A stretch of 63,845 nucleotides of DNA, from the NCBI GenBank assembly GCA_903945195.1, contig CAJAUT010000019.1, positions 1-63,845 of the forward strand, given 5' to 3'. The notes under the pieces are model-generated. The model did not search any database. It worked only from the letters and a program-made list of their open reading frames with translations, and was not told where the DNA came from. A program made the position numbers and the translations under genes. The stretch comes from an uncultured bacterium. Its GTDB lineage: Bacteria; Patescibacteriota; Microgenomatia; UBA1400; UBA12108. The stretch's first letter is position 1, and each line of letters opens with the position of its first letter. Positions 4,549 through 63,118 of the stretch are shown here, piece after piece.

Positions 4549-5427
4549 TTACTTTTTACTTACTAGGTGCCCACCAAACTTGCCCCTCATCGCCGAAACA
4601 GTTTTGTCCCGGAAGCTCTCGGACTCTTTAGTTGAACGCTTTCTTACTTCAAGTGATTCCTTGATGATTGGCACTTCTATTCCTAGTTCTTTTGCAGCAT
4701 CCACTGTCCACTCACCTTCCCCAGTATGGTCAATTTTAGAAGAAATCATATCTAGATTTGGATCCTCAGCTAGCGCTTCCTGTGTCCAGCCCACGAGCCT
4801 CGATACTATCACCGAATTGTGGTTGTACAGCTCAAATACCTCTGCCATGTCATACTCAAACTCACTAGCTTTTAGTACTGCTGCTCCTTCTGCAATAGCC
4901 TGCATCATGCCGTATTCAATACCGTTGTGCACCATCTTAGCAAAATGGCCAGCTCCAGTTTTCCCAAAATATTTAAAAGAATTCGGCGCAGACACTGCCA
5001 CCCACAATGGCATTAGTTCTTCAAATTTTGCTTTGTCACCTCCAATTAGCAAACACGCCCCGTCTCTTGCCCCTTTAGGTCCCCCCGATACTCCTATGTC
5101 CATATATCCGATTCCATCTTTCTTTAGATCTTCGACTCTGCGGATATCATCTTTGTAATTAGAATTTGCCCCATCAATTATCAAATCACCTGCAGATAGC
5201 AAAGGACGGACCTTTGTTATCATCTCATCCACGATCGTCCCGGCTGGTAGCATGAGCCATATCACTCTTTTGCCAGGATCCAGCTGCTTGATCATCTCCT
5301 CCACGCTATCTACATTTGAGACTTCATTTGGCGTTCTATTCCATGAGAGCACCTCTATTCCCTTTTCTCGCATGGACAACACTAGTCCTTTACCCATTTT
5401 CCCTAGACCTACAAATCCTATTTTCAT
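4549..5427 (-). CDS. gnd: 6-phosphogluconate dehydrogenase, short (YqeC/Gnd-like) form
   Basis: N-terminal Rossmann motif GFVGLGKMG and the GAGHFAKMVHNGIEYGMMQ block typical of 6PGDH. Convergent with zwf. Confidence 0.85.
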   Translation of the reverse strand: MKIGFVGLGKMGKGLVLSMREKGIEVLSWNRTPNEVSNVDSVEEMIKQLDPGKRVIWLMLPAGTIVDEMITKVRPLLSAGDLIIDGANSNYKDDIRRVEDLKKDGIGYMDIGVSGGPKGARDGACLLIGGDKAKFEELMPLWVAVSAPNSFKYFGKTGAGHFAKMVHNGIEYGMMQAIAEGAAVLKASEFEYDMAEVFELYNHNSVIVSRLVGWTQEALAEDPNLDMISSKIDHTGEGEWTVDAAKELGIEVPIIKESLEVRKRSTKESESFRDKTVSAMRGKFGGHLVSKK

Positions 5428-5454
5428 ATCTTTAGTTTACTCCATGCATATTAA

Positions 5455-6429
5455 CTAATGATTAAGACTAGCAAAAAATTCTAGATCCCGCATCACCACG
5501 CTGTCCCAATTAGGTTTCATATTATGATCAGCCCCTGGGTACACAAAATAATTTACCGTCTTTTCTTTACCTTTTAAAGCTTTGGAGAGATTATCACTCC
5601 ACACTTTAGGCACCGCCTCGTCCAAGGATCCTTGATGGATCTGAATGGGTATATTGATCCAGTCTAGATATCTATCTATCGAATAGTTAAACACGTCATA
5701 CTCTTTTTCAAACTCAGATATTTGTCCACGTAGCCACTTACCGCTATCGCTAGCATCATCGGTATAGTAAAGAATATTGTACGGAAATGGCTTACTTACC
5801 GGCGCCCACAATGTCACCGCTTTTACCTGCGAGGACTGTCCTTGCAGGCTCGGTTCCCTTTTACCCAAAATTTCGGCTACCGAGATCATGATCTGCCCAC
5901 CGTTTGAGTGTCCCCATAGAAATATCGGGAGTTTCGTCGTGGCCTGCACACTCGCAATCATATCGAGTATCTCAACAGGCTTTACTAGCCTAGCCCCTAG
6001 CGCACTTTCATCTTCTGGATCAGATTCCCCGTATCCAGAAAAATCGGGAGCATAGGTAGTGTAGCCACGTTCACTAAAATATTTCGCAGCATTGTGAGTC
6101 CCTATCCCCGTTCGATATCCCTCTTTCTCCACATACCCCCTCGCCATCACCACTACACCTACATGGTCGGACCCTACAGGCCTATTTGTCTCTCCGCTAA
6201 TCCTTCTACCCTCACTCTTGAAATAAAATTTATTTCCCACAACCTCGATCTTGCTCACTACTCCCCCGCGTTTAGCCAGATTCTCAAAACTATACTTCTC
6301 ATATGGCTTCTCTTTTATCACTTCCTCACCCTTTGGAGTTAGTAGATCCTCTCCTCGGCCGGCAATTCCCCACCATAGCCCTACAACCACAAAAACAAAA
6401 AATATGACCAGGCTAATTTTTGATCGCAC
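5455..6429 (-). CDS. alpha/beta hydrolase with N-terminal membrane anchor
   Basis: N-terminal TM helix, nucleophile-elbow motif GHSNGG and a C-terminal GADH block. The fold resembles dienelactone hydrolases and S9 peptidases. Confidence 0.65.
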   Translation of the reverse strand: MRSKISLVIFFVFVVVGLWWGIAGRGEDLLTPKGEEVIKEKPYEKYSFENLAKRGGVVSKIEVVGNKFYFKSEGRRISGETNRPVGSDHVGVVVMARGYVEKEGYRTGIGTHNAAKYFSERGYTTYAPDFSGYGESDPEDESALGARLVKPVEILDMIASVQATTKLPIFLWGHSNGGQIMISVAEILGKREPSLQGQSSQVKAVTLWAPVSKPFPYNILYYTDDASDSGKWLRGQISEFEKEYDVFNYSIDRYLDWINIPIQIHQGSLDEAVPKVWSDNLSKALKGKEKTVNYFVYPGADHNMKPNWDSVVMRDLEFFASLNH

Positions 6430-8359: not shown

Positions 8360-8386
8360 ACATATAACTATACCCTATGTATTAAA

Positions 8387-8490
8387 GGTTTGATCTTGTA
8401 GGTTGCAAGCTAATTCAAAACCTACTAGGTCAGACCTTGAAGGTGTATTTCAAATATTTTGAAGACCAGGTCAGACCCTAAAGGATATTT
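8387..8490. repeat. GGTCAGACC-core palindromic repeat, locus R1
   Basis: Degenerate left arm GGTTTGATCTTGTAG (8387-8401) pairs with CTACTAGGTCAGACC (8422-8436). A second AGGTCAGACC unit lies at 8468-8477. The locus ends at the stop codon of 8491-8703. Confidence 0.6.
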
Positions 8491-10935: not shown

Positions 10936-12201
10936 TCAACTTGTGAAAATTGCCATTGCGTCATCTATTGTATCATCCTGCACCTCATTAGCTTTCGGTT
11001 TAGGTGGTGATATCTTCTCGCCCGACTTGAGTTTCTCCTTCATGATTTGCCAAGGAGACTTCTCTTCCTCTTTTTGCATCTGAGATTCTAGTTCCGATCT
11101 TTGCGCGATTTTAGGCGATAGATCGGAACTTTGCAGTTTTGATTTGAGAATTGGACCTGCCTGCGCCGGCAGGGAATTTATGATTTGAGAATTACTCTCA
11201 GTGTGGCCACACCACTCTACTATCGCCACTTGGATCAGAAGTTCCCCGTCCAGACTAGTAGCCAGTCTCCTAGCCACCTCATCCAGTGCAAAAATAAATT
11301 TAGACACTTCTATCTCCACTTCACTATTTAAAAGTTTATCTCTCAGCCCTCTCATGATCGACACAATCAGATAACTCATATCCACCCCGTTTGAGGTAGC
11401 CTCACTCAGTTGTTTTAGAGATTCTTTTACATCTCTTGATGCTAAAGCATTTACAAGGATCGTAACTTTGTAATTTGAACTTCCAGATACCACTAGCTCT
11501 ATATCAGATAGCTCTACACTATCAGCATTGGATAGTACCTGATCCAGTATCTTCACCCCGTCGCGAAACGAGCCATCAACCGCTTTAGACAGATACTCTA
11601 GCGCTTCACTACTCACTTTCTTGCCCTCACCCTTTATCACCCGCGCAAAAGATCTCTGCATCTCATCACTTGTTGCTTTTGTAAACTGTATCTGTGCACA
11701 CCTAGAGACAATAGTTTCTGGGACTTTGTGCAGTTCTGTCGTACAAAGGATAAATAGCGAGTGGCTTGGTGGCTCCTCCAGGGTCTTTAAGAGCGCGTTA
11801 AAAGCCTCAGTCGTAAGCATATGCACTTCATCGATGATATAGACTTTGCGAGGCAGTACAGCCGGCGCTAGGCGAATTTTTTCTTTTAGTTCCCTAATGT
11901 CATCGATACCGCGATTAGATGCGGCGTCAATTTCAATCACGTCCATAGCGCTACCATCGAGGATCGATTTACAGGCGCTACACTGATTGCACGGCTCTCC
12001 CAGTTTCCCTGAATTTTTTTCGCAGTTTACTACCCTGGCGAGTACTCGGGCAGTACTGGTCTTGCCAGCACCACGAGGACCAGTTAGTAGGTAAGCATGC
12101 CCCACATTGCCAGATTTGACCATGTCATTTAGGACTTTACGCACGCCTGAGAGATCTAATTCATCAATTGTCTTGGGTCTGTATTTGAGATAAAGATTCA
12201 T
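10936..12201 (-). CDS. dnaX: DNA polymerase III subunit gamma/tau (short form)
   Basis: Walker A GPRGAGKTS, a Zn module (CEKNSGKLGEPCNQCSACKS), Walker B IIDEVHML and the SRC motif (VSRCAQ). Confidence 0.93.
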   Translation of the reverse strand: MNLYLKYRPKTIDELDLSGVRKVLNDMVKSGNVGHAYLLTGPRGAGKTSTARVLARVVNCEKNSGKLGEPCNQCSACKSILDGSAMDVIEIDAASNRGIDDIRELKEKIRLAPAVLPRKVYIIDEVHMLTTEAFNALLKTLEEPPSHSLFILCTTELHKVPETIVSRCAQIQFTKATSDEMQRSFARVIKGEGKKVSSEALEYLSKAVDGSFRDGVKILDQVLSNADSVELSDIELVVSGSSNYKVTILVNALASRDVKESLKQLSEATSNGVDMSYLIVSIMRGLRDKLLNSEVEIEVSKFIFALDEVARRLATSLDGELLIQVAIVEWCGHTESNSQIINSLPAQAGPILKSKLQSSDLSPKIAQRSELESQMQKEEEKSPWQIMKEKLKSGEKISPPKPKANEVQDDTIDDAMAIFTS

Positions 12202-12214
12202 GGATTACACTCTA

Positions 12215-12607
12215 TCATTCGTGGTGGTAGCCTAACAAGTGCATCAAACCGTGCTCTACTAGGAAATTGATCTGGGAGTCTAGCTTGCACTGCTTTTCTA
12301 GAGCTTCCTCTACCGCCACCGGGTAGCACACCACTATATCCCCTAGTCGCAGGATCCCATCAGGTGAGGCCATAAAAGGTCTGTCATCGCTTGGGTCATT
12401 TAGGGGGAAAGAGAGCACATCTGTAGGTCCTTCAATTTTCATATAAACTCTGTGGAGCTCAGACATTTTGCGTTTGCCCACAACTTGTATATCTACCTCT
12501 ATATTGTCGGTCAGACGATATTTGACTAGCACTTTAGTCAAATGTTCTCGCAACATTACACGATCAAATGGAAATTTTGCATCAGCTAGGATATTTATTG
12601 TAATCAT
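12215..12607 (-). CDS. ybeY: rRNA maturation endoribonuclease YbeY
   Basis: Metal-binding motif HGLMHLLGYHH at the C-terminus. 130 aa. Confidence 0.92.
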   Translation of the reverse strand: MITINILADAKFPFDRVMLREHLTKVLVKYRLTDNIEVDIQVVGKRKMSELHRVYMKIEGPTDVLSFPLNDPSDDRPFMASPDGILRLGDIVVCYPVAVEEALEKQCKLDSQINFLVEHGLMHLLGYHHE

Positions 12608-15219: not shown

Positions 15220-15283
15220 ACCTTCAAGGTCTGACCTTGTAGTCATATTGTCTTATTAAGATTCCTACGAGGTCAGACCTTAT
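15220..15283. repeat. GGTCAGACC-core palindromic repeat, locus R2
   Basis: ACCTTCAAGGTCTGACCTTGTAG ... CTACGAGGTCAGACCTTAT inverted arms. The right arm ends 9 nt before the tsf stop codon (15289-15291), the same spacing as R3. Confidence 0.65.
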
Positions 15284-15736: not shown

Positions 15737-16645
15737 TTATTTCCTCTCCTTGTTTAGTTTGAGCCCTTTCTCTACTGCTGCAGTGATAGCCATAACTAGC
15801 ATCACGACAGATTTTAGAGCATCATCATTTGCTGGGATCACTTTGGCAATACCTGTTGGGTCACCATTGGTATCTACGATAGCCACAACTGGGATAGCAC
15901 GGTGAGTAGACTCACGCATAGCAGTGATTTCGCGGGTTGGATCTACGATAAAGACTGCTTTAGGTAGTCCTTTAAGAGTTACTAGTCCACCATACATGCG
16001 CTCTAAGCGGTCAATCTCGCGCTTTAGCAGTACTTGCTCTTTTTTGGTGTATTTTTTGTATTCACCGGCTTCGTACTTTTTCTTCATGTCTACGAGTTTG
16101 TCTACGCGAGTTTTGATCTGTTCCCAGTTGGTAAATAAACCGCCAACCCAGTGAGTAGTCATAAATGCTACACCTAGTCTCTCAGCTTCTGCTTTGATCG
16201 TGTCAGCTGCTTGGGCTTTGGTTCCAACAAGGAGGATTTCGCCGCCCTTGGAGATCACGTCTGCCAAGTAGTTGCAGGCATCAGACAACATAGATCTGGT
16301 CTGGACCAAGTCAAAGATCTGGACACCATTTTTAACAGCATAAACATAATCATCCATACGTGGGTTGCGACGTTTGATCGAGTGACCAAAATGTACGCCA
16401 GCCTCTAGCATGTCTTTAAGTGATGGGAGTTTTTCAAATTCCACAGAAACTTTTACTTCTTTCTGTGCCCCTAGCGTAGCCGTAGGCGTAGTGGGGTCGA
16501 CTTTTTCCACGACAGGAGCTGCAACAACTTTCGCCTCTACTTTTTTCTCTACTACTTTTGCAATTTTCTCTGCCTTTGGTGTTTCCGACTTGACGGACTT
16601 TACAGACTTGACGGACTTTTCACTAACTCTCTTGGCGACTGCCAT
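15737..16645 (-). CDS. rpsB: 30S ribosomal protein S2 with N-terminal Lys/Val-rich extension
   Basis: uS2 core (LEAGVHFGH, FMTTHWVGGLFTNW, VVAIVDTN) preceded by an extension of about 70 aa containing KSVKSVKSVKS. Confidence 0.93.
   Translation of the reverse strand: MAVAKRVSEKSVKSVKSVKSETPKAEKIAKVVEKKVEAKVVAAPVVEKVDPTTPTATLGAQKEVKVSVEFEKLPSLKDMLEAGVHFGHSIKRRNPRMDDYVYAVKNGVQIFDLVQTRSMLSDACNYLADVISKGGEILLVGTKAQAADTIKAEAERLGVAFMTTHWVGGLFTNWEQIKTRVDKLVDMKKKYEAGEYKKYTKKEQVLLKREIDRLERMYGGLVTLKGLPKAVFIVDPTREITAMRESTHRAIPVVAIVDTNGDPTGIAKVIPANDDALKSVVMLVMAITAAVEKGLKLNKERK
16587..16622. repeat. 4 x 9-nt tandem repeat inside the rpsB 5' extension
   Basis: GACTTGACG GACTTTACA GACTTGACG GACTTTTCA (plus strand), encoding the (KSV)n tract. 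Confidence 0.8.
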
Positions 16646-16995: not shown

Positions 16996-17751
16996 TTATT
17001 TACATAAATAAACTGCATTTTGCATAAGACACGCTATTGTAACAGGTCCGATGCCTCCTGGCACCTCTACAGACACACTTGCCTTGTCATAAGCATCTCT
17101 CGCCATATCTCCCCGCGGCGCTCCTACATCTATAAGTATCACACCATCTCTTACCATATCCCCTGTCACCACACCTTCTTTTCCCACACAACTAATCACG
17201 ATGTCACCTTGCAGTACCAAATCCTTGGCATTTTGAGTATCTGAGTCGACTTTTATTACCTCTTTCCCCATTTTCTCTAATTCTAGACATGTCGCACTCC
17301 CCACAAACCCACTAGCTCCTATCACCACAAATTTCTCTGGGTTTCCCCCTATCTTCTCCACCACATCGAGTATTGCCTTAACGACTGGTGGTACTACACC
17401 CGACTCTGGATATCTGAGTCCATCCACATCTTTGTTTAATGGGATAGTCTCAAGTATATCCTTCAGCGCCTGTCCCGAAATGCCAGGAACTGGGAGTTGC
17501 AACATAATACCTGTTACTTCATCTCTCTTGGCTATCTCTTCAATCTCATTACCTAATAAATCTAGCTTTACTATCTCAAAGTCGATTCCTACTCGCTCTG
17601 CCGCTGCTTTCTTGAGTTTGGTATAGAGCGCACTAGCTGGATCATCTCCCACAAGAACGCTTACTATCCTAGGTTTTTTTGCAAGGATCGTAACTTTGTT
17701 TTTTACTTTAGCCTCTATTTCCTCTGCAAATGCTTTTCCATCAAATTTCAT
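16996..17751 (-). CDS. folD: methylenetetrahydrofolate dehydrogenase/cyclohydrolase
   Basis: FolD layout with DGKAFAEEI at the N-terminus, VVIGASGFVGS dinucleotide fold and the GGIGPVTIA block. Confidence 0.85.
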   Translation of the reverse strand: MKFDGKAFAEEIEAKVKNKVTILAKKPRIVSVLVGDDPASALYTKLKKAAAERVGIDFEIVKLDLLGNEIEEIAKRDEVTGIMLQLPVPGISGQALKDILETIPLNKDVDGLRYPESGVVPPVVKAILDVVEKIGGNPEKFVVIGASGFVGSATCLELEKMGKEVIKVDSDTQNAKDLVLQGDIVISCVGKEGVVTGDMVRDGVILIDVGAPRGDMARDAYDKASVSVEVPGGIGPVTIACLMQNAVYLCK

Positions 17752-19310: not shown

Positions 19311-19339
19311 TTGACTCATGCGTGCAGATTTCTTAGAAA
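19311..19339 (+). promoter_or_regulatory. sigma70-type promoter for glyA (TTGACT-17-TAGAAA)
   Basis: TTGACT at 19311-19316, a 17-nt spacer and TAGAAA at 19334-19339. The predicted TSS near 19346 lies just before the 49-nt hairpin element. Confidence 0.45.
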
Positions 19340-19348
19340 TTTTCAGCA

Positions 19349-19397
19349 CGCAACCATCCATCTGGGCAGCCAGATGACGATGTGAGTACTGCAAAAT
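19349..19397 (+). promoter_or_regulatory. 49-nt hairpin leader element, copy A (glyA 5' UTR)
   Basis: CGCAACCATCCATCTGGGCAGCCAGATGACGATGTGAGTACTGCAAAAT. The stem is CATC-CATCTGG / CCAGATG-(AC)-GATG. It matches 39422-39470 at 46 of 49 positions. Confidence 0.55.
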
Positions 19398-25094: not shown

Positions 25095-25460
25095 GCTTTA
25101 ACAGGCTCATTGGTTACTCACTTTTTTTACTTCAGAACCAGCATGTTAAAGCCAGAGGCGAAGGGGCCCCTGTTAAAGTTTTTGGCAGTTTTATTACTAC
25201 CAAAATCTTAGGCCCCTTCACCTCTGATCCAAAAGATCAGACTCGTCAAAGGTGACTGTGTGACATTGCGTCACAATAGTCGCTCACAAACGAGGCACTT
25301 TAACAAGCAAATACGTACAAAATGTTTTTGTCATGGATTTCTCCATATCTGGAGGACTCCCCAAATAGCGGATAAATTATTGTCCCTTATTTAAGGAGTC
25401 TTTCAGACTTCCCACGGCACGGAACCGTAAAAAAACCGAATCTTCTCAAGGAGAACACCC
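25095..25460 (+). promoter_or_regulatory. long structured 5' leader with four CTTTAACAGG-type sites
   Basis: Sites at 25095-25105 (+), 25142-25153 (-), 25169-25178 (-) and 25298-25307 (+). A 15-bp stem pairs AGAGGCGAAGGGGCC with GGCCCCTTCACCTCT. There are several smaller hairpins. SD AAGGAG lies before the ATG at 25461. Confidence 0.4.
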
Positions 25461-34414: not shown

Positions 34415-36592
34415 TCAACCGCACACACTATATCCGCACCCATAACACTTCTTACACCCTTCTTCTAGCGCCAGCTTATTTCCACACTCAGGGCAGCTTT
34501 CCTTACTCTGATTCTCTGGCTTTCTGGTCCTCTGATTTTCTGAGTTATCTGGTTGTCTGATCACTTTATTGGCTGATTGTCCGATATTGAGCACCTGCTC
34601 TCCCCTACTCTTGTCTCTATATACCGTGATCCCCTTACATTTTAGCTCTGCTGCCATCATGTAGGCACTCATCACATCTTCTACCGTTGCATCACTTGGC
34701 AGATTGATAGTTTTAGACACTGCATTATCTGTATACTTTTGGAAAGCTGCAAGCATCTCCACGTGAGTCTCTGGTTTTATATCCATCGCCGTCACAAACA
34801 CTTTGCGTATTTTTTCTGGGATTACTGTTACCCCCATTACACTCCCTGTACGAGCTATCTCGTCCATGAGGTCGCTGGAATAAAGTCCATTGACATGTTT
34901 GATCGCTTTTACTAGATCGCTGTTTACTTCTGGCAGGTTGTATTGCCCCATAGATTTGCGGAAATATGCCAGTGCAAAATGTGGCTCTATTCCTGAGCTT
35001 GCCCCAGCCATCATCGAGATCGTACCAGTAGGCGCGATCGTGATCACAGTCGCGTTGCGGAAGTGTTTGTAGCCCTTTTTCTGCCACAGACTGCCTTTAA
35101 AGTTGGGGAAGTTCCCTTTTTCTTTACCTAGCTTCTCACTCTCTTCATGACCGATCTTTTGGATAAATTTCATCACTTCTTCTGCTAGTTTGAGAGCATC
35201 TTTAGAATCATAAGCCACATGTAGTTTCACGAGCATATCTGCCCATCCCATGACCCCAAGCCCAATCTTGCGATTGCCATGAACTGTATCAGCTACTTTT
35301 TTAAGAGGATATTCACACACTGATACCACATCATCTAGCATGCGCACCGCGATCCTTACTGTTTCTTCTAGTTTTTTGTAGTCAACTTTACTATCACCGT
35401 TTGTCCCTGCCACATGAGTTGCCAAATTGATCGAACCAAGGTTGCAAGCTTCATAAGAAAGTAGTGGCTGCTCGCCGCACAGATTTACTGTCTCAAGTGG
35501 CCCTACGTGTGGAGTAGGATTGTATTTTTCTATCTCATCGATAAAGATCAGTCCTGGGTCACCATTTTTCCAGGCCATCCGAGCTGCCTCTTCCATCAAA
35601 CCCCTAGCAGAGACTCGACTAGTCACCTTGCCAGTCCTTGGGTTTATCAGCTCCCACTCAGCATTTTTCTTGACTGCTTCGATAAATTTGTTTGTGACAG
35701 AAATCGAGATATTTATGTGAGGGAAATTGTTGCCAGATTCTTTGCAGTGGATAAAGTCTATGATGTCAGGGTGTGTGATCGGCATGGTCACCATGTTGCC
35801 ACTACGTCTCTTACCAGCCTGCAAGTAAATGTCTGAGGCATCATTTACCAGTTGCATCAGTGCCACAGGGCCAGCAGCAGCACCTGAAGTCGTTGAGACC
35901 TTGTCTCCCTTGGGGCGGATATGCCCAAAGGTAAATCCTACGGCTCCACCATATTTTTTGAGGATCGAACTTTCTTTGAGCGACTCAAAAATCCCCTCTA
36001 TATCATCGGGCATCGGCATCACAAAACAGTTGGCAAGCTGATTATTTTTTGTACCAGAATTGGCAAGCGTTCTACCTCCTGGGATAAACCTCTGCTCTTT
36101 CATCACGCCTGCAAATTTTTCTAGCCACACTTTACGTGTTTTTACAGGCTCTGCAGTTGCCAAGAATTTGGCTGTACGATCAAACATACCGCCAACAGTC
36201 TCTGCGACTTCCCCTTCTTCATCTCTCAGTAGATACTTTTCCTTGGCCACAGTTAGCGCATTTAGTGTCAGTCCCACATCATCATTTACCCCAAGCGCTC
36301 TCTTACTTGCTTCTACCTGTCTCTTCTTTTCTCTATTTAAAATGTAAGCTTTGGCTGTCTTGTAGTGACCTGACTCAAGTAGTACTCGCTCGACCATATC
36401 GCCAATTTCTGCCGAGGAAACTTTTTTGATACGACCATATTGTTTATCTAGTTTGGTTATCACTTGCTTGGCTAGACTCTGGGCTAGCTTGTCATCTGTC
36501 CCACCTACATCTTGGGCAGCCAAAAATATAGAATCGGCTATCTTTTCTTGCTCTAGTACTTGCTCTTTGTCACTGCGTTTGATTACTTTCAT
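34415..36592 (-). CDS. nrdJ: class II (adenosylcobalamin-type) ribonucleotide reductase with ATP-cone and C-terminal zinc ribbon
   Basis: N-terminal ATP-cone, active-site NLCGEQPL and a C-terminal CPECG...CKKCYGCG. 725 aa in a single chain. Confidence 0.9.
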   Translation of the reverse strand: MKVIKRSDKEQVLEQEKIADSIFLAAQDVGGTDDKLAQSLAKQVITKLDKQYGRIKKVSSAEIGDMVERVLLESGHYKTAKAYILNREKKRQVEASKRALGVNDDVGLTLNALTVAKEKYLLRDEEGEVAETVGGMFDRTAKFLATAEPVKTRKVWLEKFAGVMKEQRFIPGGRTLANSGTKNNQLANCFVMPMPDDIEGIFESLKESSILKKYGGAVGFTFGHIRPKGDKVSTTSGAAAGPVALMQLVNDASDIYLQAGKRRSGNMVTMPITHPDIIDFIHCKESGNNFPHINISISVTNKFIEAVKKNAEWELINPRTGKVTSRVSARGLMEEAARMAWKNGDPGLIFIDEIEKYNPTPHVGPLETVNLCGEQPLLSYEACNLGSINLATHVAGTNGDSKVDYKKLEETVRIAVRMLDDVVSVCEYPLKKVADTVHGNRKIGLGVMGWADMLVKLHVAYDSKDALKLAEEVMKFIQKIGHEESEKLGKEKGNFPNFKGSLWQKKGYKHFRNATVITIAPTGTISMMAGASSGIEPHFALAYFRKSMGQYNLPEVNSDLVKAIKHVNGLYSSDLMDEIARTGSVMGVTVIPEKIRKVFVTAMDIKPETHVEMLAAFQKYTDNAVSKTINLPSDATVEDVMSAYMMAAELKCKGITVYRDKSRGEQVLNIGQSANKVIRQPDNSENQRTRKPENQSKESCPECGNKLALEEGCKKCYGCGYSVCG
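34506..34562. repeat. DNA repeat inside nrdJ coding sequence (shared with epmA)
   Basis: 34508-34526 CTGATTCTCTGGCTTTCTG is identical to 46459-46477. The flanking TGAGTT..TTGTCTGAT is also shared. Encodes ..NSENQRTRKPENQ.. in the linker before the zinc ribbon. Confidence 0.7.
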
Positions 36593-39343: not shown

Positions 39344-39421
39344 GTAAGAATTGTACCATTCTATCGAGAAGACTCCTCTATAAAAACCATATAAAAGCTG
39401 ATTGGAAAATAATTTTAAACC

Positions 39422-39470
39422 CGCAACCATCCATCTGGGTAGCCAGATGACGATGTGAGGATTGCAAAAT
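39422..39470 (+). promoter_or_regulatory. 49-nt hairpin element, copy B (orphan copy between dprA and pth)
   Basis: CGCAACCATCCATCTGGGTAGCCAGATGACGATGTGAGGATTGCAAAAT, matching copy A at 46 of 49 positions. The upstream AT-rich GAAAATAATTTTAAAC resembles the region before copy A. Confidence 0.5.
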
Positions 39471-40030: not shown

Positions 40031-40089
40031 CTCTAGACACTTTTGATTCCCCAGTAAATACAAATCGCTCACAGCTATATAATACACAA

Positions 40090-40127
40090 ACACCCTCCTC
40101 GATGTTTCTGCATAACGAGGAGGGTGT
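40090..40127 (-). terminator. 12-bp perfect hairpin terminator
   Basis: ACACCCTCCTCG (40090-40101) pairs with CGAGGAGGGTGT (40116-40127). T-rich on the minus strand. Downstream of the 55-aa ORF. Confidence 0.55.
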
Positions 40128-40138
40128 TTAAAATACTA

Positions 40139-40790: not shown

Positions 40791-40880
40791 TATAAGGTCT
40801 GACCTGCTAAGGAGACGAACGAAGTGAGTGTTTAGTCGAATCCTGAGCTTGGCGAAGGAGAGACCAGGTCAGACCTTATA
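40791..40880. repeat. GGTCAGACC-core palindromic repeat, locus R3
   Basis: Perfect 14-bp terminal inverted repeats: TATAAGGTCTGACC (40791-40804) and GGTCAGACCTTATA (40867-40880). The GGTCAGACC core of the right arm ends 9 nt before the stop codon at 40885. Confidence 0.7.
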
Positions 40881-40884
40881 GGTA

Positions 40885-41808
40885 CTAGTTCTCTCTCGTC
40901 CCCATCCACGCGACTAGTTCCTCCATGACCTTCCGGGAGTCTCCCGGAAGGCTCAAAAGTCCAGATGTGAGTGACCGAGCCTTGCTCATATGTTCTTTTA
41001 TTACCTGTTCAGTTTTTTCTTTCCCATTCATCGTGGCATAGGTATGTTTGCCTTCGCGACTATCGTTTCCCACAGGTTTACCTGTCTTTTCACTATCGCC
41101 GTACTCCCCTAGCCAATCATCTCGTAGCTGAAATACATAGCCTAGCTCCATCCCGTATTTTTTAAGATTCTCTATCATCTCAGGTTTGGCTCCACCTAGG
41201 GTAGCCCCAAGTAGTAGTGGTAGGACGCAGCTATATTCCCCGCTCTTCATCTCTAGTATTTGCTGGATCGTGGTCTCATCCGCTATCGCTAGACCGTCAA
41301 GTGTCTGGCCATATCCCACCCGGGTGAAGTATTTGCCCCATACTTTCATTGCTTCAATCACTATCTTTGGATCCATTTTTAAATCAGATAAAATCTCTAT
41401 CCCCCAGCCAAATGTATAGTCGCCAGCTAGCATCGAGACAAAGTCGGCTTTATGTCTGTCATCATATCTAGCTAGCATCGTCTTGACCCCGCGGCGGAGT
41501 GTATCATTGTCCATGAAATCATCTTGGATCAACAGTCCCAGGTGGAAAATCTCCATCATGGCCGCAGATTTGACAATGTCTTGTAGGGGCGGATTATCAT
41601 CAGCCCGTGCGATCTCATATCCAAGTATCGTGAGCATTGCCCTCATCCGCTTACCACCCACAGACAGTTCCTTCATTGCTTCTACTATCTTTAACAGTTG
41701 TGGTGAAATACTTTTTACCTCTACCAGTCTCCTCTCTAGTTCACCTGCAATCTCTCTGTCCACCAGCTCTTTGTATTTGGCAATAAATTCTTCTAGCAAT
41801 TTATTCAT
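40885..41808 (-). CDS. polyprenyl diphosphate synthase (FPP/GGPP synthase family)
   Basis: First Asp-rich motif LIQDDFMDND and second QLRDDWLG. Confidence 0.9.
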   Translation of the reverse strand: MNKLLEEFIAKYKELVDREIAGELERRLVEVKSISPQLLKIVEAMKELSVGGKRMRAMLTILGYEIARADDNPPLQDIVKSAAMMEIFHLGLLIQDDFMDNDTLRRGVKTMLARYDDRHKADFVSMLAGDYTFGWGIEILSDLKMDPKIVIEAMKVWGKYFTRVGYGQTLDGLAIADETTIQQILEMKSGEYSCVLPLLLGATLGGAKPEMIENLKKYGMELGYVFQLRDDWLGEYGDSEKTGKPVGNDSREGKHTYATMNGKEKTEQVIKEHMSKARSLTSGLLSLPGDSRKVMEELVAWMGTREN

Positions 41809-45834: not shown

Positions 45835-46914
45835 CTATATTATAGATATATTAAACAACTCCCCTACCGGGAAAAAGAGCGTATCTGCAATATCTGGAGC
45901 GTCTGCAAACAGCGCCACTAGCCTATCTACTCCCACCGCAATCCCCCCAGTTTCTGGCATCCCCATCTTCAAAGCCTCGATAAAGTCAGTATCCATTGGG
46001 TAAGCGAGTTTACCCTGAGCTTGCCGAAGGGCTAGATCAGCTAGACACCTAGCCTCCTGCTCTCTCCAGTCAGTCAGCTCCGAGAAACAATTGCCTAGCT
46101 CCATACCCGCCATAAACACTTCAAATCTCTCGGCAAATCTAGGATCACTCACTTTCTTTTTCGAAAGTGCTGCTTGGGACACTGGATAGTCATAAAGAAT
46201 AGTTGGGCCCTTTTGCCCGAGCTTTGGCTCTATCTCATTGGCGATTATTTGATTCCAGATTTCTTCCCAGGTTGTTTTTTCATCTACTTGATACCCACGC
46301 TGTTTGCCGCATGCCGTAAGCCGTTTGCCATCCAACATCGTCTCAGTGTCGATCCCTGCATATTTTTCAAATGCTTCAGCAACCGATATCCTCTCCCACG
46401 GTGCCTTCAAAGAGTATTCTTTCCCCTGGTACATCAAAATCTCCGATGCTCTGATTTGCTGATTCTCTGGCTTTCTGAGTTTTCCGATTGTCTGATTTAT
46501 CTTAATCATCAACCCCTCAAAGTCATGCGCCACGTCCATATAGTCACCTGGCGTCCTGTACCATTCAAGGATGCTAAATTCTGGGTTGTGTCGACTAGAT
46601 CTCCCTTCACCATTGCGAAAAGATTTAGTGATCGTAAATATAGACCCTGACCCAGCAGACAAGAGTTTTTTCATTGCAAACTCAGGAGAACTAGGCAAAA
46701 ATCCATCCCATTTATGACCTTGATCATCTACAAGTTTTGTCTTAAATACTTCTAAAAATGGCTCCGTACTAGGTGTGGGTAAAAGTAGTGGCACCTCGGC
46801 CTCATGAAATCCCTCACCCTTAAAATATGCGCGGATCGCATCGATCACTTTTTCCCTCACAAAATACTGTTTCCATAATTCTGGTTTTTCTTTCAATTTT
46901 TGAAACGTTTTCAT
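45835..46914 (-). CDS. epmA: EF-P lysine ligase EpmA/GenX-like (LysRS catalytic-core paralogue)
   Basis: Class II aaRS motif 2 (FRNGEGRSSRHNPEFSILEWY) and motif 3 (GGIAVGVDRLVALF), with no anticodon-binding domain. In the efp neighbourhood. Confidence 0.8.
   Translation of the reverse strand: MKTFQKLKEKPELWKQYFVREKVIDAIRAYFKGEGFHEAEVPLLLPTPSTEPFLEVFKTKLVDDQGHKWDGFLPSSPEFAMKKLLSAGSGSIFTITKSFRNGEGRSSRHNPEFSILEWYRTPGDYMDVAHDFEGLMIKINQTIGKLRKPENQQIRASEILMYQGKEYSLKAPWERISVAEAFEKYAGIDTETMLDGKRLTACGKQRGYQVDEKTTWEEIWNQIIANEIEPKLGQKGPTILYDYPVSQAALSKKKVSDPRFAERFEVFMAGMELGNCFSELTDWREQEARCLADLALRQAQGKLAYPMDTDFIEALKMGMPETGGIAVGVDRLVALFADAPDIADTLFFPVGELFNISII
46448..46497. repeat. DNA repeat inside epmA coding sequence (shared with nrdJ)
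   Basis: 46459-46477 is identical to 34508-34526. Encodes ..GKLRKPENQQIRA... The segment next to the shared core is read in a different frame from the nrdJ copy. Confidence 0.7.
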
Positions 46915-54023: not shown

Positions 54024-54962
54024 ATGAACCTCATCTTTTTTGGCGCAGACCAATATTCTGCAGTAGCTCTCCAAACTATCCTTGCCGCTAGCCTTCCGGG
54101 AGACTCCCGGCAGGTTCAGGTAGTCACCGACAAACACGAAGGTGGCTCACCTGTCGAAAAACTCGCCAAGGAACACAACCTAAATGTCTCCTACTACCCC
54201 ACCCTCCCAGATCTATCTGGTGCCATCGGCCTCTGCGCCTCATTTGACCACTTGATCCCTCAAGACATCATCGCCCAATTTGCAGGCAATCTATACAATC
54301 TCCACCCATCCCTTTTGCCACAGTACAGAAATGTCTCCCCTGTTCAGTACGCGATCGCCCTAGGCGACAAGGAAACTGGTATCACCCTCTTTCGCATCTC
54401 CCCAGGTATAGATGACGGAGAGATTATCGCCCAGTCCTCAGAGCCCATCCTAGAGTCAGATACGACCGCCACCCTTACCCCTCGACTATTTAAAAAAGGT
54501 GCCGAATTGTTCCTAAGTTACGATCCTTGTAAACCAAGCAATATTTACAAGGATCGTAACTTTGCAATCCCAGCCGAATCCCTCATCTTTACCCGCCGTC
54601 TCACCCGCGATTCTGGCTTTATCGACTGGGTAGTACTAGAAAAGCTCCTCACAGGCAAAAAAATCGAAGCCACAGAAACCAATAATGGATTACTCAACTT
54701 GCGCATCACCCACAATCCTGATGGCAATATTCTAAAAGATCTCCTGCGCGCCCTCACCCCCTGGCCTGGTATCTGGAGCCTCGTACCTACCAAGAAGGGC
54801 GAGTTGCGAATTGCTCTTGTGATTAAAGGGTCTGACCTTACAGGAAGTGCCCAACCCGCAGATTCAAAGGCGGGAAGGTCAGACCCTGAAGGTATTCAAA
54901 TCCTCATCTCAGGAAAACACAAAGCTATATCTCTTAAAGATTTCACAAAATATTATTTATGA
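54024..54962 (+). CDS. fmt: methionyl-tRNA formyltransferase (carrying an in-frame repeat insertion)
   Basis: The HPSLLPQYRN motif, an N-terminal formyltransferase fold and a C-terminal domain interrupted by the R4 repeat. Confidence 0.9.
   Translation: MNLIFFGADQYSAVALQTILAASLPGDSRQVQVVTDKHEGGSPVEKLAKEHNLNVSYYPTLPDLSGAIGLCASFDHLIPQDIIAQFAGNLYNLHPSLLPQYRNVSPVQYAIALGDKETGITLFRISPGIDDGEIIAQSSEPILESDTTATLTPRLFKKGAELFLSYDPCKPSNIYKDRNFAIPAESLIFTRRLTRDSGFIDWVVLEKLLTGKKIEATETNNGLLNLRITHNPDGNILKDLLRALTPWPGIWSLVPTKKGELRIALVIKGSDLTGSAQPADSKAGRSDPEGIQILISGKHKAISLKDFTKYYL
54826..54901. repeat. GGTCAGACC-core palindromic repeat, locus R4, in frame within fmt
   Basis: GGTCTGACC (54829-54837) ... CCCGC/GCGGG inner hairpin ... 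GGTCAGACC (54877-54885), plus a CTGAAGGTATTCAAAT tail as at R1. Translated as KGSDLTGSAQPADSKAGRSDPEG. Confidence 0.7.
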
Positions 54963-58785: not shown

Positions 58786-58874
58786 ATGGCCCATAGTGTA
58801 CCATATTTCCCTCCAAAGTCAATGGCGATGCCCTCTCGAAGCCGGAGGCGTAGTGGGGTATACTGACACAACCT

Positions 58875-59476: not shown

Positions 59477-59547
59477 AGGCCTGTCGTTCAGCGGTAGGAC
59501 TCTTCTCTCCAAAAGAAGTAACGAAGGTTCGATCCCTTCCGGGCCTG
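59477..59547 (+). tRNA. trnW: tRNA-Trp (anticodon CCA), no encoded CCA end
   Basis: Folded by hand: acceptor AGGCCTG/CGGGCCT, D arm GTTC-AGCGGTA-GGAC, anticodon arm CTTCT-CTCCAAA-AGAAG, T arm GAAGG-TTCGATC-CCTTC, discriminator G. Confidence 0.85.
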
Positions 59548-61215
59548 CAGAGTAGAAATTACAGGGGTTACGACACCTGTTTTTTCGTATATATCAATAC
59601 TTTTTTCAGGTTCTAGCGGATCTATAGTGTAAGCACGAATGTCGGCATTAGCTTTTCTTATAAACAAGTGCAAAATATCTTGATCCATCAATACTTTCCT
59701 ATCTAAGAGTTTTAGGTTCTGGCCTAAATTGCGGAATACTGTAGTCCTAGTCTCAAAGTCACCAGTATTAAAATCAGTCGCCGCCTTCACAGCAAAGTTA
59801 AATTTCTCCTCTGTATCACCCATAAAGTTCGCTACTCTTTGAGTTAGATCTGCTAATTTCTCTACAGCTTGCTTCTTGTTCTCCTCTAGCTCCCCTTTCC
59901 GTTTCATATATGCCTCAGTACTAATGATTTTACGATCCTTGTTCTCTGGTTGAGTATATTGCACCAACAAGCCGTCTAATTCTCTCTGAGTGCCACTAAC
60001 TACTTTTTGCAAGTTATCTAGAGCTTGAGCATTTACCGCTATCTGACCCTCTGTATTCGTCTTGAGTTGTTTGAGGACCCAATCACAGACTTTGGGTTTA
60101 ATCTCTAGCGACATCAAGTAATCATGAATTTGCGCCTCCAATGCCTCAATCCTAATCGTTTTCTGGGTACATTCATGATTCTTTTTCTTGGTACACGCCC
60201 CATAAATGTAATGTAGTCGTGTGGGGTCATCCATCTTATCTATTGCTAGTTCACACTTAGGACAAGTAGTTCTATTTCTTGAGGCAAACTTATATTTACA
60301 TCCACTACAGATCACTTGGTATTTCTCCTCTAGACAGATAGCGCTACCGCACTCTCCACACTGCATAAGCCCTCTGTACGGCAATGACACCGTTTTAGGC
60401 CGACTCTTACCCTTGTAGCCTAGTATCATCTGTATCTGATCGTATTCTCTATCTGTAATCATCGCTTCATGCCTACCCCTTACTCTCTGACCATCTGCTG
60501 TATAGATCCATCCCGCATAAAATTCGTTATGTAGGACCTTATAAAAATTACTTATGCCCATTGGCTTACCACCAATCCTTCTTGTCTTTGGCGTACGAAA
60601 TCCCCACTCCTCATTCAGTATCTCTAGAACTTTAGGAGGTGATTTGTAATTAATCACCATCTGTAATGCCCGTTTTATCAGATCAAATCGCTCAGGATCA
60701 TTAGCTAGAATGGGCTCACCAGTGGCAGGATCTTCTACAAACATATATCCTGAGTACTTCTTGATTGACCAACCTCGTAGTACCTTCTCCCTGTTTCCCC
60801 GCTTCACCGATTCGCTATTATCATCAGATGATTTTTTGCTCATAGCAAACTCAAGAGCCAGCATAAACTTACTATTGCCTGAGCCATCGGTGTACCCTGT
60901 AGGGGTCCTAATCCCCTTTATCACCCCAGAATCAAGCATGTAGATAATCATTCCCCCATCTAGGGAATTACGAGCTATACGGTTATATTGCCAAACCAAG
61001 ATTGCGTCAGCTTCCCCATCCTGCAATCTCTCCACCATCTTATTAAATTCTGGTCTCCCTACCTTGTAGGCACTCGCCGACTCTGTAAACCTATCTACTA
61101 TCTCCAGTCGTTCTTTTTGTGCGTATTCGTCCAACGCCCTCTTCTGAGCAGGCAAGGATAGCAACTGCCGATCCTCACTCTCCGTACTCTTGCGACAATA
61201 GATAAAATATTTCAT
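59488..61215 (-). CDS. large serine recombinase (integrase)
   Basis: N-terminal resolvase catalytic domain (YCRKSTESEDRQLLSLPAQ, catalytic Ser), a recombinase domain, a zinc ribbon (CGECGS...CSGC...CPKC) and a coiled coil. The last 20 codons are antisense to tRNA-Trp. Confidence 0.9.
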   Translation of the reverse strand: MKYFIYCRKSTESEDRQLLSLPAQKRALDEYAQKERLEIVDRFTESASAYKVGRPEFNKMVERLQDGEADAILVWQYNRIARNSLDGGMIIYMLDSGVIKGIRTPTGYTDGSGNSKFMLALEFAMSKKSSDDNSESVKRGNREKVLRGWSIKKYSGYMFVEDPATGEPILANDPERFDLIKRALQMVINYKSPPKVLEILNEEWGFRTPKTRRIGGKPMGISNFYKVLHNEFYAGWIYTADGQRVRGRHEAMITDREYDQIQMILGYKGKSRPKTVSLPYRGLMQCGECGSAICLEEKYQVICSGCKYKFASRNRTTCPKCELAIDKMDDPTRLHYIYGACTKKKNHECTQKTIRIEALEAQIHDYLMSLEIKPKVCDWVLKQLKTNTEGQIAVNAQALDNLQKVVSGTQRELDGLLVQYTQPENKDRKIISTEAYMKRKGELEENKKQAVEKLADLTQRVANFMGDTEEKFNFAVKAATDFNTGDFETRTTVFRNLGQNLKLLDRKVLMDQDILHLFIRKANADIRAYTIDPLEPEKSIDIYEKTGVVTPVISTLQARKGSNLRYFFWREESYR

Positions 61216-61230
61216 ATAATTACCTACATT

Positions 61231-61920
61231 TTACACATATATACCTCTTAAAAATATATCGTCTACCTCCTGACTTGTCATATTATCCATAGTTCTAGGA
61301 ATTATTGGGTTATCAAATTTCTGATTCTGATCTATCCACATCATATCTTCTGGCAATAAACCAGAATAACCATCATTCGTATATATCTCCTTATAATCAT
61401 ATAAGCTCCTTACTGTCTTCATATTCTTTATACCTAAATCATCCTTAAAAGAACTTAAAGCTTTAGTAGAGACTTCCCAGATCTGAGACGTAGATATTTT
61501 CGGAATATTTTCCTGTATTGCTCTGGTAATTATCATCTCACTATCGGAAAAACAAATATTCTCTAGTAATTTTTCTATCGTAATATTTCGTTCAGATAGC
61601 TCACACTGAGGCGCTTTGCCAAATACATATCTTTCGGGATTTTTCACTGCGTAAAGTTTTCTCTTCTTATCAGACAACTTCACAAATCTCTTACTCAACA
61701 AACATGTAAACCAATCATTTATACTCTCAGGTTTTTTATGAAATACACACTCTAATTCATCTGGGAAAAACTCAAATAAACCAAAGTTATCATGCCTATG
61801 ATCCCAATCCATAGTATCTAGCAAATACTCGTACAAACTCCACTGCTGCAAACTCAGGATCTTCCCACTTATTAGCAACCACCTATTCTTGTAACTTGGT
61901 CTATATCCATTACGCTTCAT
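61231..61920 (-). CDS. hypothetical protein of the integrative element
   Basis: 229-aa ORF. No motif recognised. Confidence 0.5.
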   Translation of the reverse strand: MKRNGYRPSYKNRWLLISGKILSLQQWSLYEYLLDTMDWDHRHDNFGLFEFFPDELECVFHKKPESINDWFTCLLSKRFVKLSDKKRKLYAVKNPERYVFGKAPQCELSERNITIEKLLENICFSDSEMIITRAIQENIPKISTSQIWEVSTKALSSFKDDLGIKNMKTVRSLYDYKEIYTNDGYSGLLPEDMMWIDQNQKFDNPIIPRTMDNMTSQEVDDIFLRGIYV

Positions 61921-62071
61921 ATTGACCTTTAGGGTGATCCCTATTAAATATTGCGGTAGCGATATTCACCAGACTCTCACCTATTCGTCTTACTTCATCC
62001 AAACTCAACTCAACCTGATATTCCGAGGCAATAATCTTTTTTAACTCTAAAATTTCAGAGTCTGGGATCAT
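61910..62071 (-). CDS. 53-aa hypothetical ORF (below track cutoff)
   Basis: MIPDSEILELKKIIASEYQVELSLDEVRRIGESLVNIATAIFNRDHPKGQYEA. Overlaps both neighbours (11 nt and 17 nt), which suggests translational coupling. Confidence 0.3.
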   Translation of the reverse strand: MIPDSEILELKKIIASEYQVELSLDEVRRIGESLVNIATAIFNRDHPKGQYEA

Positions 62072-62270
62072 CTGTCTCCTTTTCAGTCATACTTAAAACA
62101 TTACCGCCCAACACAAACTCCAAACCCTCTTCTACAAGGCTCTTAATGGACCTTTCCTGCTTCACCGCCTCTAACTTCGCATAGTAGAGCCACCCCGCAT
62201 CTATACGTACCAACTTTGTGCTATTGCTGTTTACTTGTTTATTCGCTGTGACTAACTTATTCATATACAA
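62055..62270 (-). CDS. ribbon-helix-helix-like small regulator (putative)
   Basis: KLVRIDAGWLYYAKLEAVKQERSIKSLVEEGLEFVL has a strand-helix-helix pattern. AGGAG SD. An inverted-repeat operator candidate lies upstream. Confidence 0.45.
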   Translation of the reverse strand: MYMNKLVTANKQVNSNSTKLVRIDAGWLYYAKLEAVKQERSIKSLVEEGLEFVLGGNVLSMTEKETDDPRL

Positions 62271-62285
62271 AAAATCTCCTGATTA

Positions 62286-62323
62286 GGGTGACTATCTAAT
62301 CAAGAGATTACTGGTAGTCACCC
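62286..62323. promoter_or_regulatory. 9-bp perfect inverted repeat GGGTGACTA-N20-TAGTCACCC upstream of the RHH gene
   Basis: Arms at 62286-62294 and 62315-62323, located 16-53 nt upstream of the ATG at 62270. Confidence 0.35.
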
Positions 62324-62336
62324 ATTTTTAGACAAC

Positions 62337-62368
62337 AAAAAAAGCCGCGACCTAAACTGGTCTCGGCT
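62337..62368 (-). terminator. intrinsic terminator after the repeat-protein gene
   Basis: On the minus strand, AGCCGAGACC-loop-GGTCGCGGCT (one mismatch) is followed by T7. Confidence 0.5.
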
Positions 62369-62446
62369 ATATTGCTCGTTATTAAGATAATAATATCACA
62401 AATCTAAGAATAAATCCATTAATGAATTAATATTGATATATCAATC

Positions 62447-63118
62447 TTAAGGATAAATATACATGCTATTGCCTATATTGCTTGCACTTGAGCCGTCACT
62501 ACCAAAAGTAGTGTTGCCGATATGAGTATAGATTGTCCCATCATTGGCAAATGTCGTATTGCCAATATTTGTGTAAGTTGAGCCATCATTACCAAATATC
62601 GTACTTCCAACTTGGGTATAGGTAGATCCATCGCTTCCAAAAGTGGTATTCCCTATTTTTGTAAAAGTATCGCCATCATTTCCATACAAAGTGGATCCAA
62701 CTTTAGTATAAGAACTACTTCCACCATAAACATCAATAACTGGTTCTTGACTCGCAACAGGGATACGAGTGATTATTTCGCTATTTACATCAGACTCATC
62801 TACTTCTAATTGATCTGATTTCAAATTGAAGCAACTATCTGGATTCATTACAAAAAACGCATCTATATCATCATCAGTGTAATCATATTTTTTCATTAAA
62901 TTAGTCAATTCTTGTTTATTAAATTGACAATGCTTAGCATCTAAGGACAAAGCTTTTGGTGAAGGGTTCATGGTTGGAATGATAGTTGGAGATGGACTTA
63001 CAACCACAATTGATTCTACTGGTGGAGAAGGGATTTGGATTGGAGTTTTTACGGTCATTACCAATGAACTAAATGAAATAATTATACTGGCTATCAACGC
63101 TCGCAAATAATTAATCAT
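62447..63118 (-). CDS. secreted protein with tandem 11-residue G-x-T-x-(F/Y)-G-x-D-G repeats
   Basis: N-terminal signal or anchor. The C-terminus holds about 7 units such as VGSTLYGNDGDTFTK, IGNTTFGSDGSTYTQ and VGSTIFGNDGSTYTN. Confidence 0.6.
   Translation of the reverse strand: MINYLRALIASIIISFSSLVMTVKTPIQIPSPPVESIVVVSPSPTIIPTMNPSPKALSLDAKHCQFNKQELTNLMKKYDYTDDDIDAFFVMNPDSCFNLKSDQLEVDESDVNSEIITRIPVASQEPVIDVYGGSSSYTKVGSTLYGNDGDTFTKIGNTTFGSDGSTYTQVGSTIFGNDGSTYTNIGNTTFANDGTIYTHIGNTTFGSDGSSASNIGNSMYIYP

Follow-up and report, generated by a model that had tools for sequence, protein, structure and literature searches.

A hairpin DNA element lies in frame in the methionyl-tRNA formyltransferase gene of a Microgenomates bacterium and is probably a small mobile element

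The stretch of DNA studied here, referred to below as the window, is contig CAJAUT010000019.1 (63,845 nt; assembly GCA_903945195.1) of an uncultured bacterium of the Patescibacteriota, class Microgenomatia, order UBA1400. Its forward strand carries fmt, the gene of methionyl-tRNA formyltransferase, as an open reading frame (ORF) of 312 aa (54024-54962), and inside this gene lies a hairpin element (54826-54895, forward strand) across which the frame stays open and which encodes GSDLTGSAQPADSKAGRSDPEG (aa 269-290). The element is built on a perfect 13-bp inverted repeat with 35 nt between the arms: the left arm AGGGTCTGACCTT (54827-54839), which includes the core GGTCTGACC, is 100% complementary to the right arm AAGGTCAGACCCT (54875-54887). 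Between them are a 15-nt segment ACAGGAAGTGCCCAA (54840-54854; consensus AAAGGAAGTGCCCAA), conserved and unpaired by prediction, and an inner hairpin, CCCGC-AGATTCAAAG-GCGGG, with a 10-nt loop (54855-54874) and a stem that is kept among copies. The right arm is followed by the tail GAAGGTAT (54888-54895; family consensus NNNGGTAC), conserved after the stem in most copies, both coding and intergenic. We call the subfamily with this organization the A-type. The element is GC-rich compared with its flanks, and its limits are set by an alignment of 21 copies and by metagenome contigs, in which the non-matching ends begin at 54817-54826 and 54887-54896.

An earlier note, made from the sequence alone, had described a palindromic repeat inserted in frame in the C-terminal domain of Fmt, between ELRIALVI and IQILISGK. 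Both parts of this description agree with the perfect arms and with the translation, which reads ...ELRIALVIK-GSDLTGSAQPADSKAGRSDPEG-IQILISGK... and contains 22 added residues. The tail CTGAAGGTATTCAAAT, which the note had counted as part of the repeat, belongs to it only in part: CCCTNNNGGTA(C) is common to the other copies, and TCAAAT, in the region where the metagenome contigs diverge, is probably host sequence.

The ORF at 54024-54962 is a bona fide fmt. The N-terminal domain model PF00551 (Formyl_trans_N) of Pfam matches it at 8.9e-23 over aa 70-163, the Pfam model of the C-terminal Fmt domain gives no score on the window protein, and solved structures of Met-tRNA formyltransferase and ArnA are among the best sequence matches of the product. 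The catalytic motif region NLHPSLLPQYRN (HPSLLP..R / D) is unchanged across the aligned Fmt orthologues. The AlphaFold2 model of the protein (predicted template-modelling score, pTM, 0.81) has the two-domain fold of the family with a C-terminal beta-barrel and a linker, and its top Foldseek matches in the PDB are full-length Fmt structures (3r8x, 4iqf, 1fmt and 2fmt; TM 0.58-0.63).

The element has relatives in the window. The motif GGTCWGACC (GGTCTGACC/GGTCAGACC) occurs eight times against an expectation of 0.26-0.29, a count that 0 of 100 shuffled sequences reached, and the sites always stand in nearby pairs, of which the pair in fmt is genic and the other three are intergenic. The first of these, R1 (8384-8490), has a degenerate left arm AAGGTTTGATCTT at 8386 and two GGTCAGACC sites at 8428 and 8469. 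R2 (15220-15283, core sites at 15228 and 15271) is found 6 nt past the stop codon of the EF-Ts gene and upstream of an M50 protease gene, and R3 (40791-40880, core sites at 40796 and 40867), with 16-nt arms that are 100% complementary, is found 4 nt past the stop codon of a polyprenyl synthase gene. In global alignments of the fmt copy with R1, R2 and R3 only 1-9 of 2000 random window segments reached the observed score, so that the nucleotide-level similarity to the spacer copies on which the earlier note had made its reading depend is indeed present. The likeness is mainly in the ends of about 13-20 nt and the interiors are unlike, which suggests that the four copies form one superfamily and that R1-R3 are related subfamilies rather than members of the fmt copy's own. 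The places and the intergenic setting that the note had given for R1-R3 thus hold, and their identity with the element in fmt does not. A GTAG-like tetranucleotide (CTTGTAGG) occurs in the R1/R2 subfamily only.

That the segment in fmt is an insertion rather than a native loop is evident from its orthologues. A protein search gave 225 Fmt homologues at E <= 1e-10, 120 of them listed; the nearest have 66% identity in BLAST local alignment, some of the homologues are titled Microgenomates or Woesebacteria, and some carry the name Fmt. Among 34 aligned orthologues (56-74% identity) the window's segment is present at the same place only in P0017, and most of the others have a short unrelated loop there. 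Moreover, a near-identical peptide, GSDLKGS[AS]QPADSKAGRSDP.G, was found at three different positions in different orthologues: in a loop of a beta-hairpin (site i, the site of the window and of P0017), after ELLxLRL (site ii; P0004, P0005, P0009 and P0024) and in the interdomain linker (site iii; P0016 and P0022). The native-loop reading was therefore rejected. Among the Fmt matches listed, 22 of 120 have a GGTCWGACC-type peptide, with 3, 10 and 10 occurrences at sites i, ii and iii, respectively, P0050 having it at two sites. On a neighbour-joining tree from gap-free columns, which includes 9 of the 10 carriers at site ii, the three sites require at least 3, 7 and 8 state changes, or at least 18 gains or losses in total.

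The content of the sites also changes between close relatives. P0024 and P0032 are 82% identical, and site ii has the element in one and another hairpin-encoded peptide, GRTQGSAPT, in the other. The R1 subfamily is in frame at site iii of P0008 (contig L209), where it encodes RSDLVGYKSDQKPTRSDLVG, and contig L003, which holds the fmt of P0017, has a variant at site ii whose flanks are unchanged and whose core is swapped (AAGGACAGTC.../...GACTGTCCTT), with the pairing kept. Some copies are reduced. P0014 has a shortened GSDLKGRPDPIG at site ii, and site i of contig L002 has a single GGTCTGACC with flanks that match the filled site of L003 almost exactly; this single core is best read as the product of a deletion between two near-identical cores. 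Such copies suggest that old insertions fade to ordinary loop sequence.

In the AlphaFold2 model the inserted residues fall where the fold would tolerate them. Residues 272-288, between strands 259-267 and 291-295, have a predicted local distance difference test (pLDDT) below 50, and the insert is thus predicted to be a low-confidence loop between two strands. Site iii maps to the linker 171-184, also with pLDDT below 50, and site ii to the loop between helices 222-230 and 236-244.

Other hairpins were seen in fmt. In L003 the gene (4926-5969) has three hairpin inserts, at 5429-5488, 5685-5728 and 5837-5894, by which the protein grows to 347 aa, and an additional GC-rich insert that encodes SSAVAPEKCLQTQSGLGGPP. 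The linker of the window's fmt (54510-54567) is the longest local inverted repeat of the window, with 24-nt arms of 92% complementarity and a 10-nt loop, and encodes LSYDPCKPSNIYKDRNFA. Similar hairpin-encoded linkers occur in Fmt orthologues (YEPCNPSNHYKVRNF), in L003 with perfect arms of 25 nt, and exact 13-mers of one linker arm (CAAGGATCGTAAC) recur at 11449-11474 and 17677-17702, where they form part of the dnaX-like and folD genes and are read in other frames. A second palindrome, CCTTCCGGGAGWCTCCCGGAAGG, is present in the N-terminal part of fmt (54090-54115) and near the C-terminus of the polyprenyl synthase gene on the minus strand (40928-40953), and both copies are read in one frame as SLPGDSR(Q/K)V. 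It occurs at the same fmt position in orthologues with compensatory changes (CCTTTCGGGAG/CTCCCGAAAGG in L211 and CTTTCGGGCG/CGCCCGAAAG in L002), and orthologues without it have the same length as those having it.

As the element is repeated, its position in fmt could in principle be a repeat-induced chimeric join made by the assembler. The locus is present in lake-water metagenomes, and there the assembler depth rises from 12.6 to 167 (about 13-fold) across 54843-54883 in run X1 and many contigs terminate inside the element, as would be expected of a multi-copy repeat that is hard to assemble. However, the element is spanned intact and without differences in four runs, by a contig of 14,298 nt in X1 and by contigs in X3, X5 and X9, the sequence on either side is in-frame fmt that is conserved among the orthologues, and the same arrangement is found in independent genomes of other studies. 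We consider an assembly artefact extremely unlikely.

Copies were also sought beyond fmt, in 185,579 species-representative genomes and in the metagenome collection of the Joint Genome Institute (JGI), and the DNA of several Fmt orthologues was fetched. Altogether, 21 distinct copies from varied genes and genomes align across about 70 nt, with an almost invariant outer stem and 15-nt segment. Their flanks have a weak NNAG preference on the left and the conserved NNNGGTAC on the right. Besides the three sites of fmt, copies are located in an ORF of 391 aa, at the C-terminal end of one of 496 aa, at the N-terminal end of one of 347 aa, just upstream of lepA, at a gene junction and in several stretches of short ORFs that are probably intergenic. 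One 449-aa ORF is terminated by the element's own stop codon (GTC TGA). Two Wzy-like genes have the element at the same place in different frames (VGLTLKEVPNPADSKTGKVRP and GSDLKGSAQPRIIKRGEGQTL); the empty counterpart of this place was sought in the window's own Wzy-like gene, from which the landmark motif is absent. Many of the contigs found (L005-L010 and several of L025-L174) have third-party annotation (TPA) titles of the type 'uncultured Pseudomonadales/Gammaproteobacteria/Burkholderiales' and Patescibacteria-like content, and may be mislabelled.

The similarity among the copies exceeds that of the genes around them. Copy-to-copy identity is 81-95%, compared to 52-77% for the flanking fmt DNA of the same pairs of genomes. 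With copies from other genes and genomes the window copy shares 90-95% identity, reaching 95% with L009, yet with the same-site copy of L003 it shares only 85%. The window copy is thus nearer to those in other genes than to the one at its own site, and the comparison speaks for independent insertion or recent spread rather than for shared inheritance.

It could be argued that selection acts on the peptide and that what recurs is a module of proteins, such as a functional loop or short linear motif, shuffled among them, since the peptide is hydrophilic and exposed and one frame, GSDLKGSAQPADSKAGRSDP, dominates among the coding copies. However, the element has three stop-free frames, GSDLKGSAQPADSKAGRSDP, GLTLKEVPNPQTQRREGQTL and, in reverse, GSDLPAFESAGWALPLRSDP; the copy of L031 is read in the reverse orientation, and the same DNA is also found in non-coding places. 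These observations indicate that the conserved unit is the DNA and not the peptide. In the 21 copies, conservation at third codon positions equals that at the first two, and the 15-nt segment is nearly invariant at third positions as well. The peptide of the inner loop varies freely (PADSKAG, PPLSGG, PRHKPSRG, PRIYNHRG) while base pairing is retained, and the structure is disordered by prediction. A protein module is thus very improbable. In an exhaustive representative search the sole above-threshold match of the 30-aa window segment was a eukaryotic kinase with an unrelated tandem repeat, a match that was deemed spurious.

Related hairpins are spread more widely. The R1 subfamily also occurs in the Woesebacteria contig L054 and the R3 subfamily in L082 and L044. 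In the species-representative genomes, hairpins based on AGGTCWGACCT were found at 76 loci with the core order T..A and at 114 with the order A..T, the chance expectation for each core-order pattern being about 8 by our own estimate. Their palindromic extensions are lineage-specific and their interiors unrelated. By record title the hosts are mostly Patescibacteria (Woesebacteria, Beckwithbacteria, Kaiserbacteria, Saccharibacteria, Paceibacterota, Nomurabacteria), with a minority of metagenome-assembled genomes titled Treponema, Spirochaetaceae, Verrucomicrobia, Pseudomonadota, Vicinamibacterales, Roseivirga and others. Some of the hairpins are within long ORFs, for example of 745 and 1381 aa in Beckwithbacteria.

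The hairpin itself is maintained. All copies adopt the same predicted fold, with energies of -28 to -43 kcal/mol, and 97.8% of the cells pair in the alignment of the 21 copies. In three pairs both partners have changed, namely in columns 3-70 (AU/GC), 4-69 (GC/AU) and 34-54 (CG/GC/AU/GU). The left arm is invariant except for compensatory changes at its two outermost pairs, and the inner stem has variants such as CCCCGC/GCGGGG, CCCCCGC/GCGGGGG and CCCAC/GTGGG around a loop that varies in sequence and length. None of 500 shuffles reached the observed covariation score, and slid controls collapse. RNA function, DNA recognition or hairpin-templated repair are all possible causes of this maintenance, and the hairpin may matter as DNA or as RNA.

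One such cause would be that the hairpin is a co-opted nucleic-acid signal, selected in fmt for the regulation of this gene: it could, for example, be bound or processed by a conserved Patescibacteria protein or nuclease, stabilise the mRNA, resemble a terminator or make translation pause. The covarying stem pairs and the near-invariant unpaired segment are in line with this, as are the excess of the core hairpins in many Patescibacteria lineages, the stop codons of upstream genes that abut R2 and R3, and the other fmt hairpin at 54092-54114, which keeps its pairing through compensatory changes in orthologues. On the other hand, the position in fmt differs among genomes and most orthologues are without the element, so conserved regulation of fmt is not likely. 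R1-R3 and the fmt copy have no intrinsic-terminator T-run after the stem. The element matches no family in Rfam 15, where a permissive scan of 54780-54940 gave chance-level results only (E >= 0.55, far below gathering thresholds) and where tRNA-Trp is the window's only match at gathering score. Finally, both core orders are common, which speaks against one fixed oriented recognition signal. Taken together, we find this explanation unlikely.

The occupation of the same fmt site by different hairpin cassettes in sister genomes would also allow a bolder reading, in which a Patescibacteria-wide modular system of a 9-nt stem core with interchangeable interiors is recognised by a conserved protein or nuclease and time and again adds, exchanges and removes loops in essential proteins. 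If true, this would be a lineage-specific generator of protein-loop diversity or an RNA-level layer of control in organisms with minimal regulation; at present we hold it to be improbable.

As for the protein, residues K298, I302, F307 and Y311, which follow the insert, are invariant and in frame in the alignment of 34 orthologues, indicating that the element is translated through. No copy within a long ORF brings a stop into the host frame or shifts the frame downstream, which likewise points to read-through. The peptide would then be part of the mature protein, and junction-spanning tryptic peptides such as GSDLTGSAQPADSK and SDPEGIQILISGK would be expected. Alternatively, the segment could be missing from the mature protein, either cut from the mRNA or skipped by the ribosome, as in programmed translational bypassing. 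A strong hairpin in a coding region, in an element that is mobile and GC-rich compared to its flanks, would suit such removal. Stop-free and frame-keeping copies would be needless, however, if the segment were skipped, decayed copies remain as ordinary coding sequence, and neither matching take-off and landing codons nor an in-frame stop at the 5' end are present. Removal or bypass is thus highly unlikely.

It is quite probable that the element is a small non-autonomous mobile DNA element of hairpin type, like a MITE (miniature inverted-repeat transposable element) or a repetitive extragenic palindromic (REP) sequence, of which the in-frame copy is read through as a disordered passenger loop. 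Elements with the palindromic core GGTCWGACC at their ends would be scattered, presumably by transposition with an enzyme supplied from elsewhere than the element, over genomes in the Microgenomates and elsewhere in the Patescibacteria, for the most part in spacers or at the ends of genes. A copy landing in a gene would persist only if its length keeps the frame, if it is read in a stop-free frame and if it is placed in a linker, a surface loop or a terminus. The surviving copy would be translated as a disordered loop rich in Gly, Ser, Asp, Pro and Lys, a passenger and not a functional module, and later decay by internal deletion would leave footprints that turn into ordinary loop sequence.

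Several results weigh against a mobile element of this kind. An allele with an empty site was sought in four lake metagenomes and none was seen, and none of the RNA sequencing runs searched holds the locus. No target-site duplication could be defined in the flanks of the 21 copies, where no direct repeat is evident. No transposase, REP-associated tyrosine transposase (RAYT) or parent insertion sequence with these ends was found by Pfam among the window ORFs of at least 100 aa, where the only matches were to housekeeping genes and to a single large serine recombinase next to tRNA-Trp. The A-type subfamily is scarce in the collections scanned: 6 loci came from the 185,579 species genomes and 14 from the JGI metagenomes. 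In addition, the compensatory changes could come from hairpin-templated repair and not from selection, and the 15-nt segment, unpaired and nearly invariant, hints at a role for its particular sequence that a purely selfish model would not account for.

Other features of the window were also recorded. The large serine recombinase (59488-61215, 575 aa, with Resolvase and Recombinase domains) overlaps tRNA-Trp (59477-59548), and after it come low-GC ORFs that match nothing in Pfam (61231-63118); together they look like a mobile element integrated at a tRNA gene. A YbeY gene is located at 12215-12607. A direct repeat of 60 nt, 90% identical, lies at 19338-19397, upstream of the SHMT gene, and at 39411-39470, between the genes of DprA and peptidyl-tRNA hydrolase, i.e. 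in intergenic or gene-start regions, and contains an internal palindrome (CCATCTGG..CCAGATGA). A low-complexity repeat of the type CTGATT/CTGGTT is found in a ribonucleotide reductase gene (34506-34569) and in a class II tRNA-synthetase-like gene (46441-46496); both genes are on the minus strand and have it in the 3' part, which codes for the N-terminus. The latter gene is a single ORF of 359 aa in the window and two ORFs of 240 and 105 aa in L002 (4433-5534), the contig syntenic for P0022; a frameshift or an element insertion could account for the split. There are also a 34-nt repeat with 82% identity (16469-16502 and 58831-58864), a strong hairpin with 16-nt arms and a 42-nt loop (25153-25226) and a perfect hairpin of which the arms and the loop are 14 nt each (40088-40129). 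GC skew is negative in every 1-kb bin of 1-63845 (about -0.2, C over G) irrespective of gene orientation, and the cumulative skew falls linearly, in agreement with the strand disparity reported in the Microgenomates order UBA1400 (PMC7143001).

The earlier note had supposed that such behaviour was undescribed for this kind of organism, and our full-text searches gave no paper linking palindromic, REP or MITE elements with Patescibacteria or the candidate phyla radiation (CPR). In-frame palindromic selfish DNA in housekeeping genes has been described chiefly in Rickettsia and in a few further lineages. Its occurrence in Microgenomates and the CPR, likewise host-dependent bacteria with reduced genomes, suggests that small genomes and weak selection lead to it in general and that it is not an oddity of Rickettsia. 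Proteins of the CPR are known for insertions that lack an explanation, depress homology scores and make annotation, alignment and structure prediction harder. In the single enzyme Fmt, three variable regions are here traceable to hairpin DNA. Elements of such size would escape a gene-based survey, and they break metagenome assemblies, many contigs ending in them; they could also serve as markers of strains or lineages.

Among known systems, the REP sequences and bacterial interspersed mosaic elements (BIMEs) associated with RAYT (Y1/HUH) enzymes are similar in being short imperfect palindromes, typically just past stop codons as are R2 and R3, that form species-specific families around a conserved core. 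REPs lack target-site duplications, and none could be defined for the present copies. However, REPs are extragenic by definition and the present family is found in coding DNA as well, no RAYT gene was found in the window, and the tetranucleotide resembling GTAG is confined to R1/R2. The translational-bypass elements, i.e. the 'byps' of yeast mitochondria and the gap of phage T4 gene 60, are unreadable because of stops or frameshifts, and the ribosome skips them. They are likewise short mobile hairpin-forming inserts in protein-coding genes, but every genic copy of the present element is open and preserves the frame. Bacterial MITEs with in-frame intragenic copies include ERIC, pneumococcal BOX, Coxiella QMITE1 and the MITEs of Anabaena (PMC10969869, PMC5896051). 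The element shares their small size (about 70 nt), terminal inverted repeats (13 bp), lack of a coded transposase, stable hairpin, multiple copies and occasional in-frame fusion, and differs in being smaller than most of them and in that neither a target-site duplication nor a parent insertion sequence was identified.

The closest resemblance in behaviour seems to be to the Rickettsia palindromic elements (RPEs; Ogata et al. 2000, as summarised in PMC10969869). As far as that summary describes them, RPEs are palindromic families found both between genes and in frame in unrelated housekeeping genes, read as a conserved peptide at positions that the fold tolerates (here according to the AlphaFold2 prediction), in a host-dependent bacterium with a reduced genome. 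The present family likewise has many copies of both kinds, three intergenic and one genic in the window and others in several unrelated genes elsewhere. In contrast, the element is about 60-70 nt long and RPEs about 100-150 bp, and its hosts are Patescibacteria, an unrelated phylum. The family has also colonised one essential gene at three sites with more than one subfamily, and its 9-nt core is common to many subfamilies in several candidate phyla. The resemblance to RPEs proposed in the earlier note would accordingly be one of behaviour, with in-frame and intergenic copies in tolerated loops, and not of family membership: the element appears to work like an RPE, in another phylum and at a smaller size.

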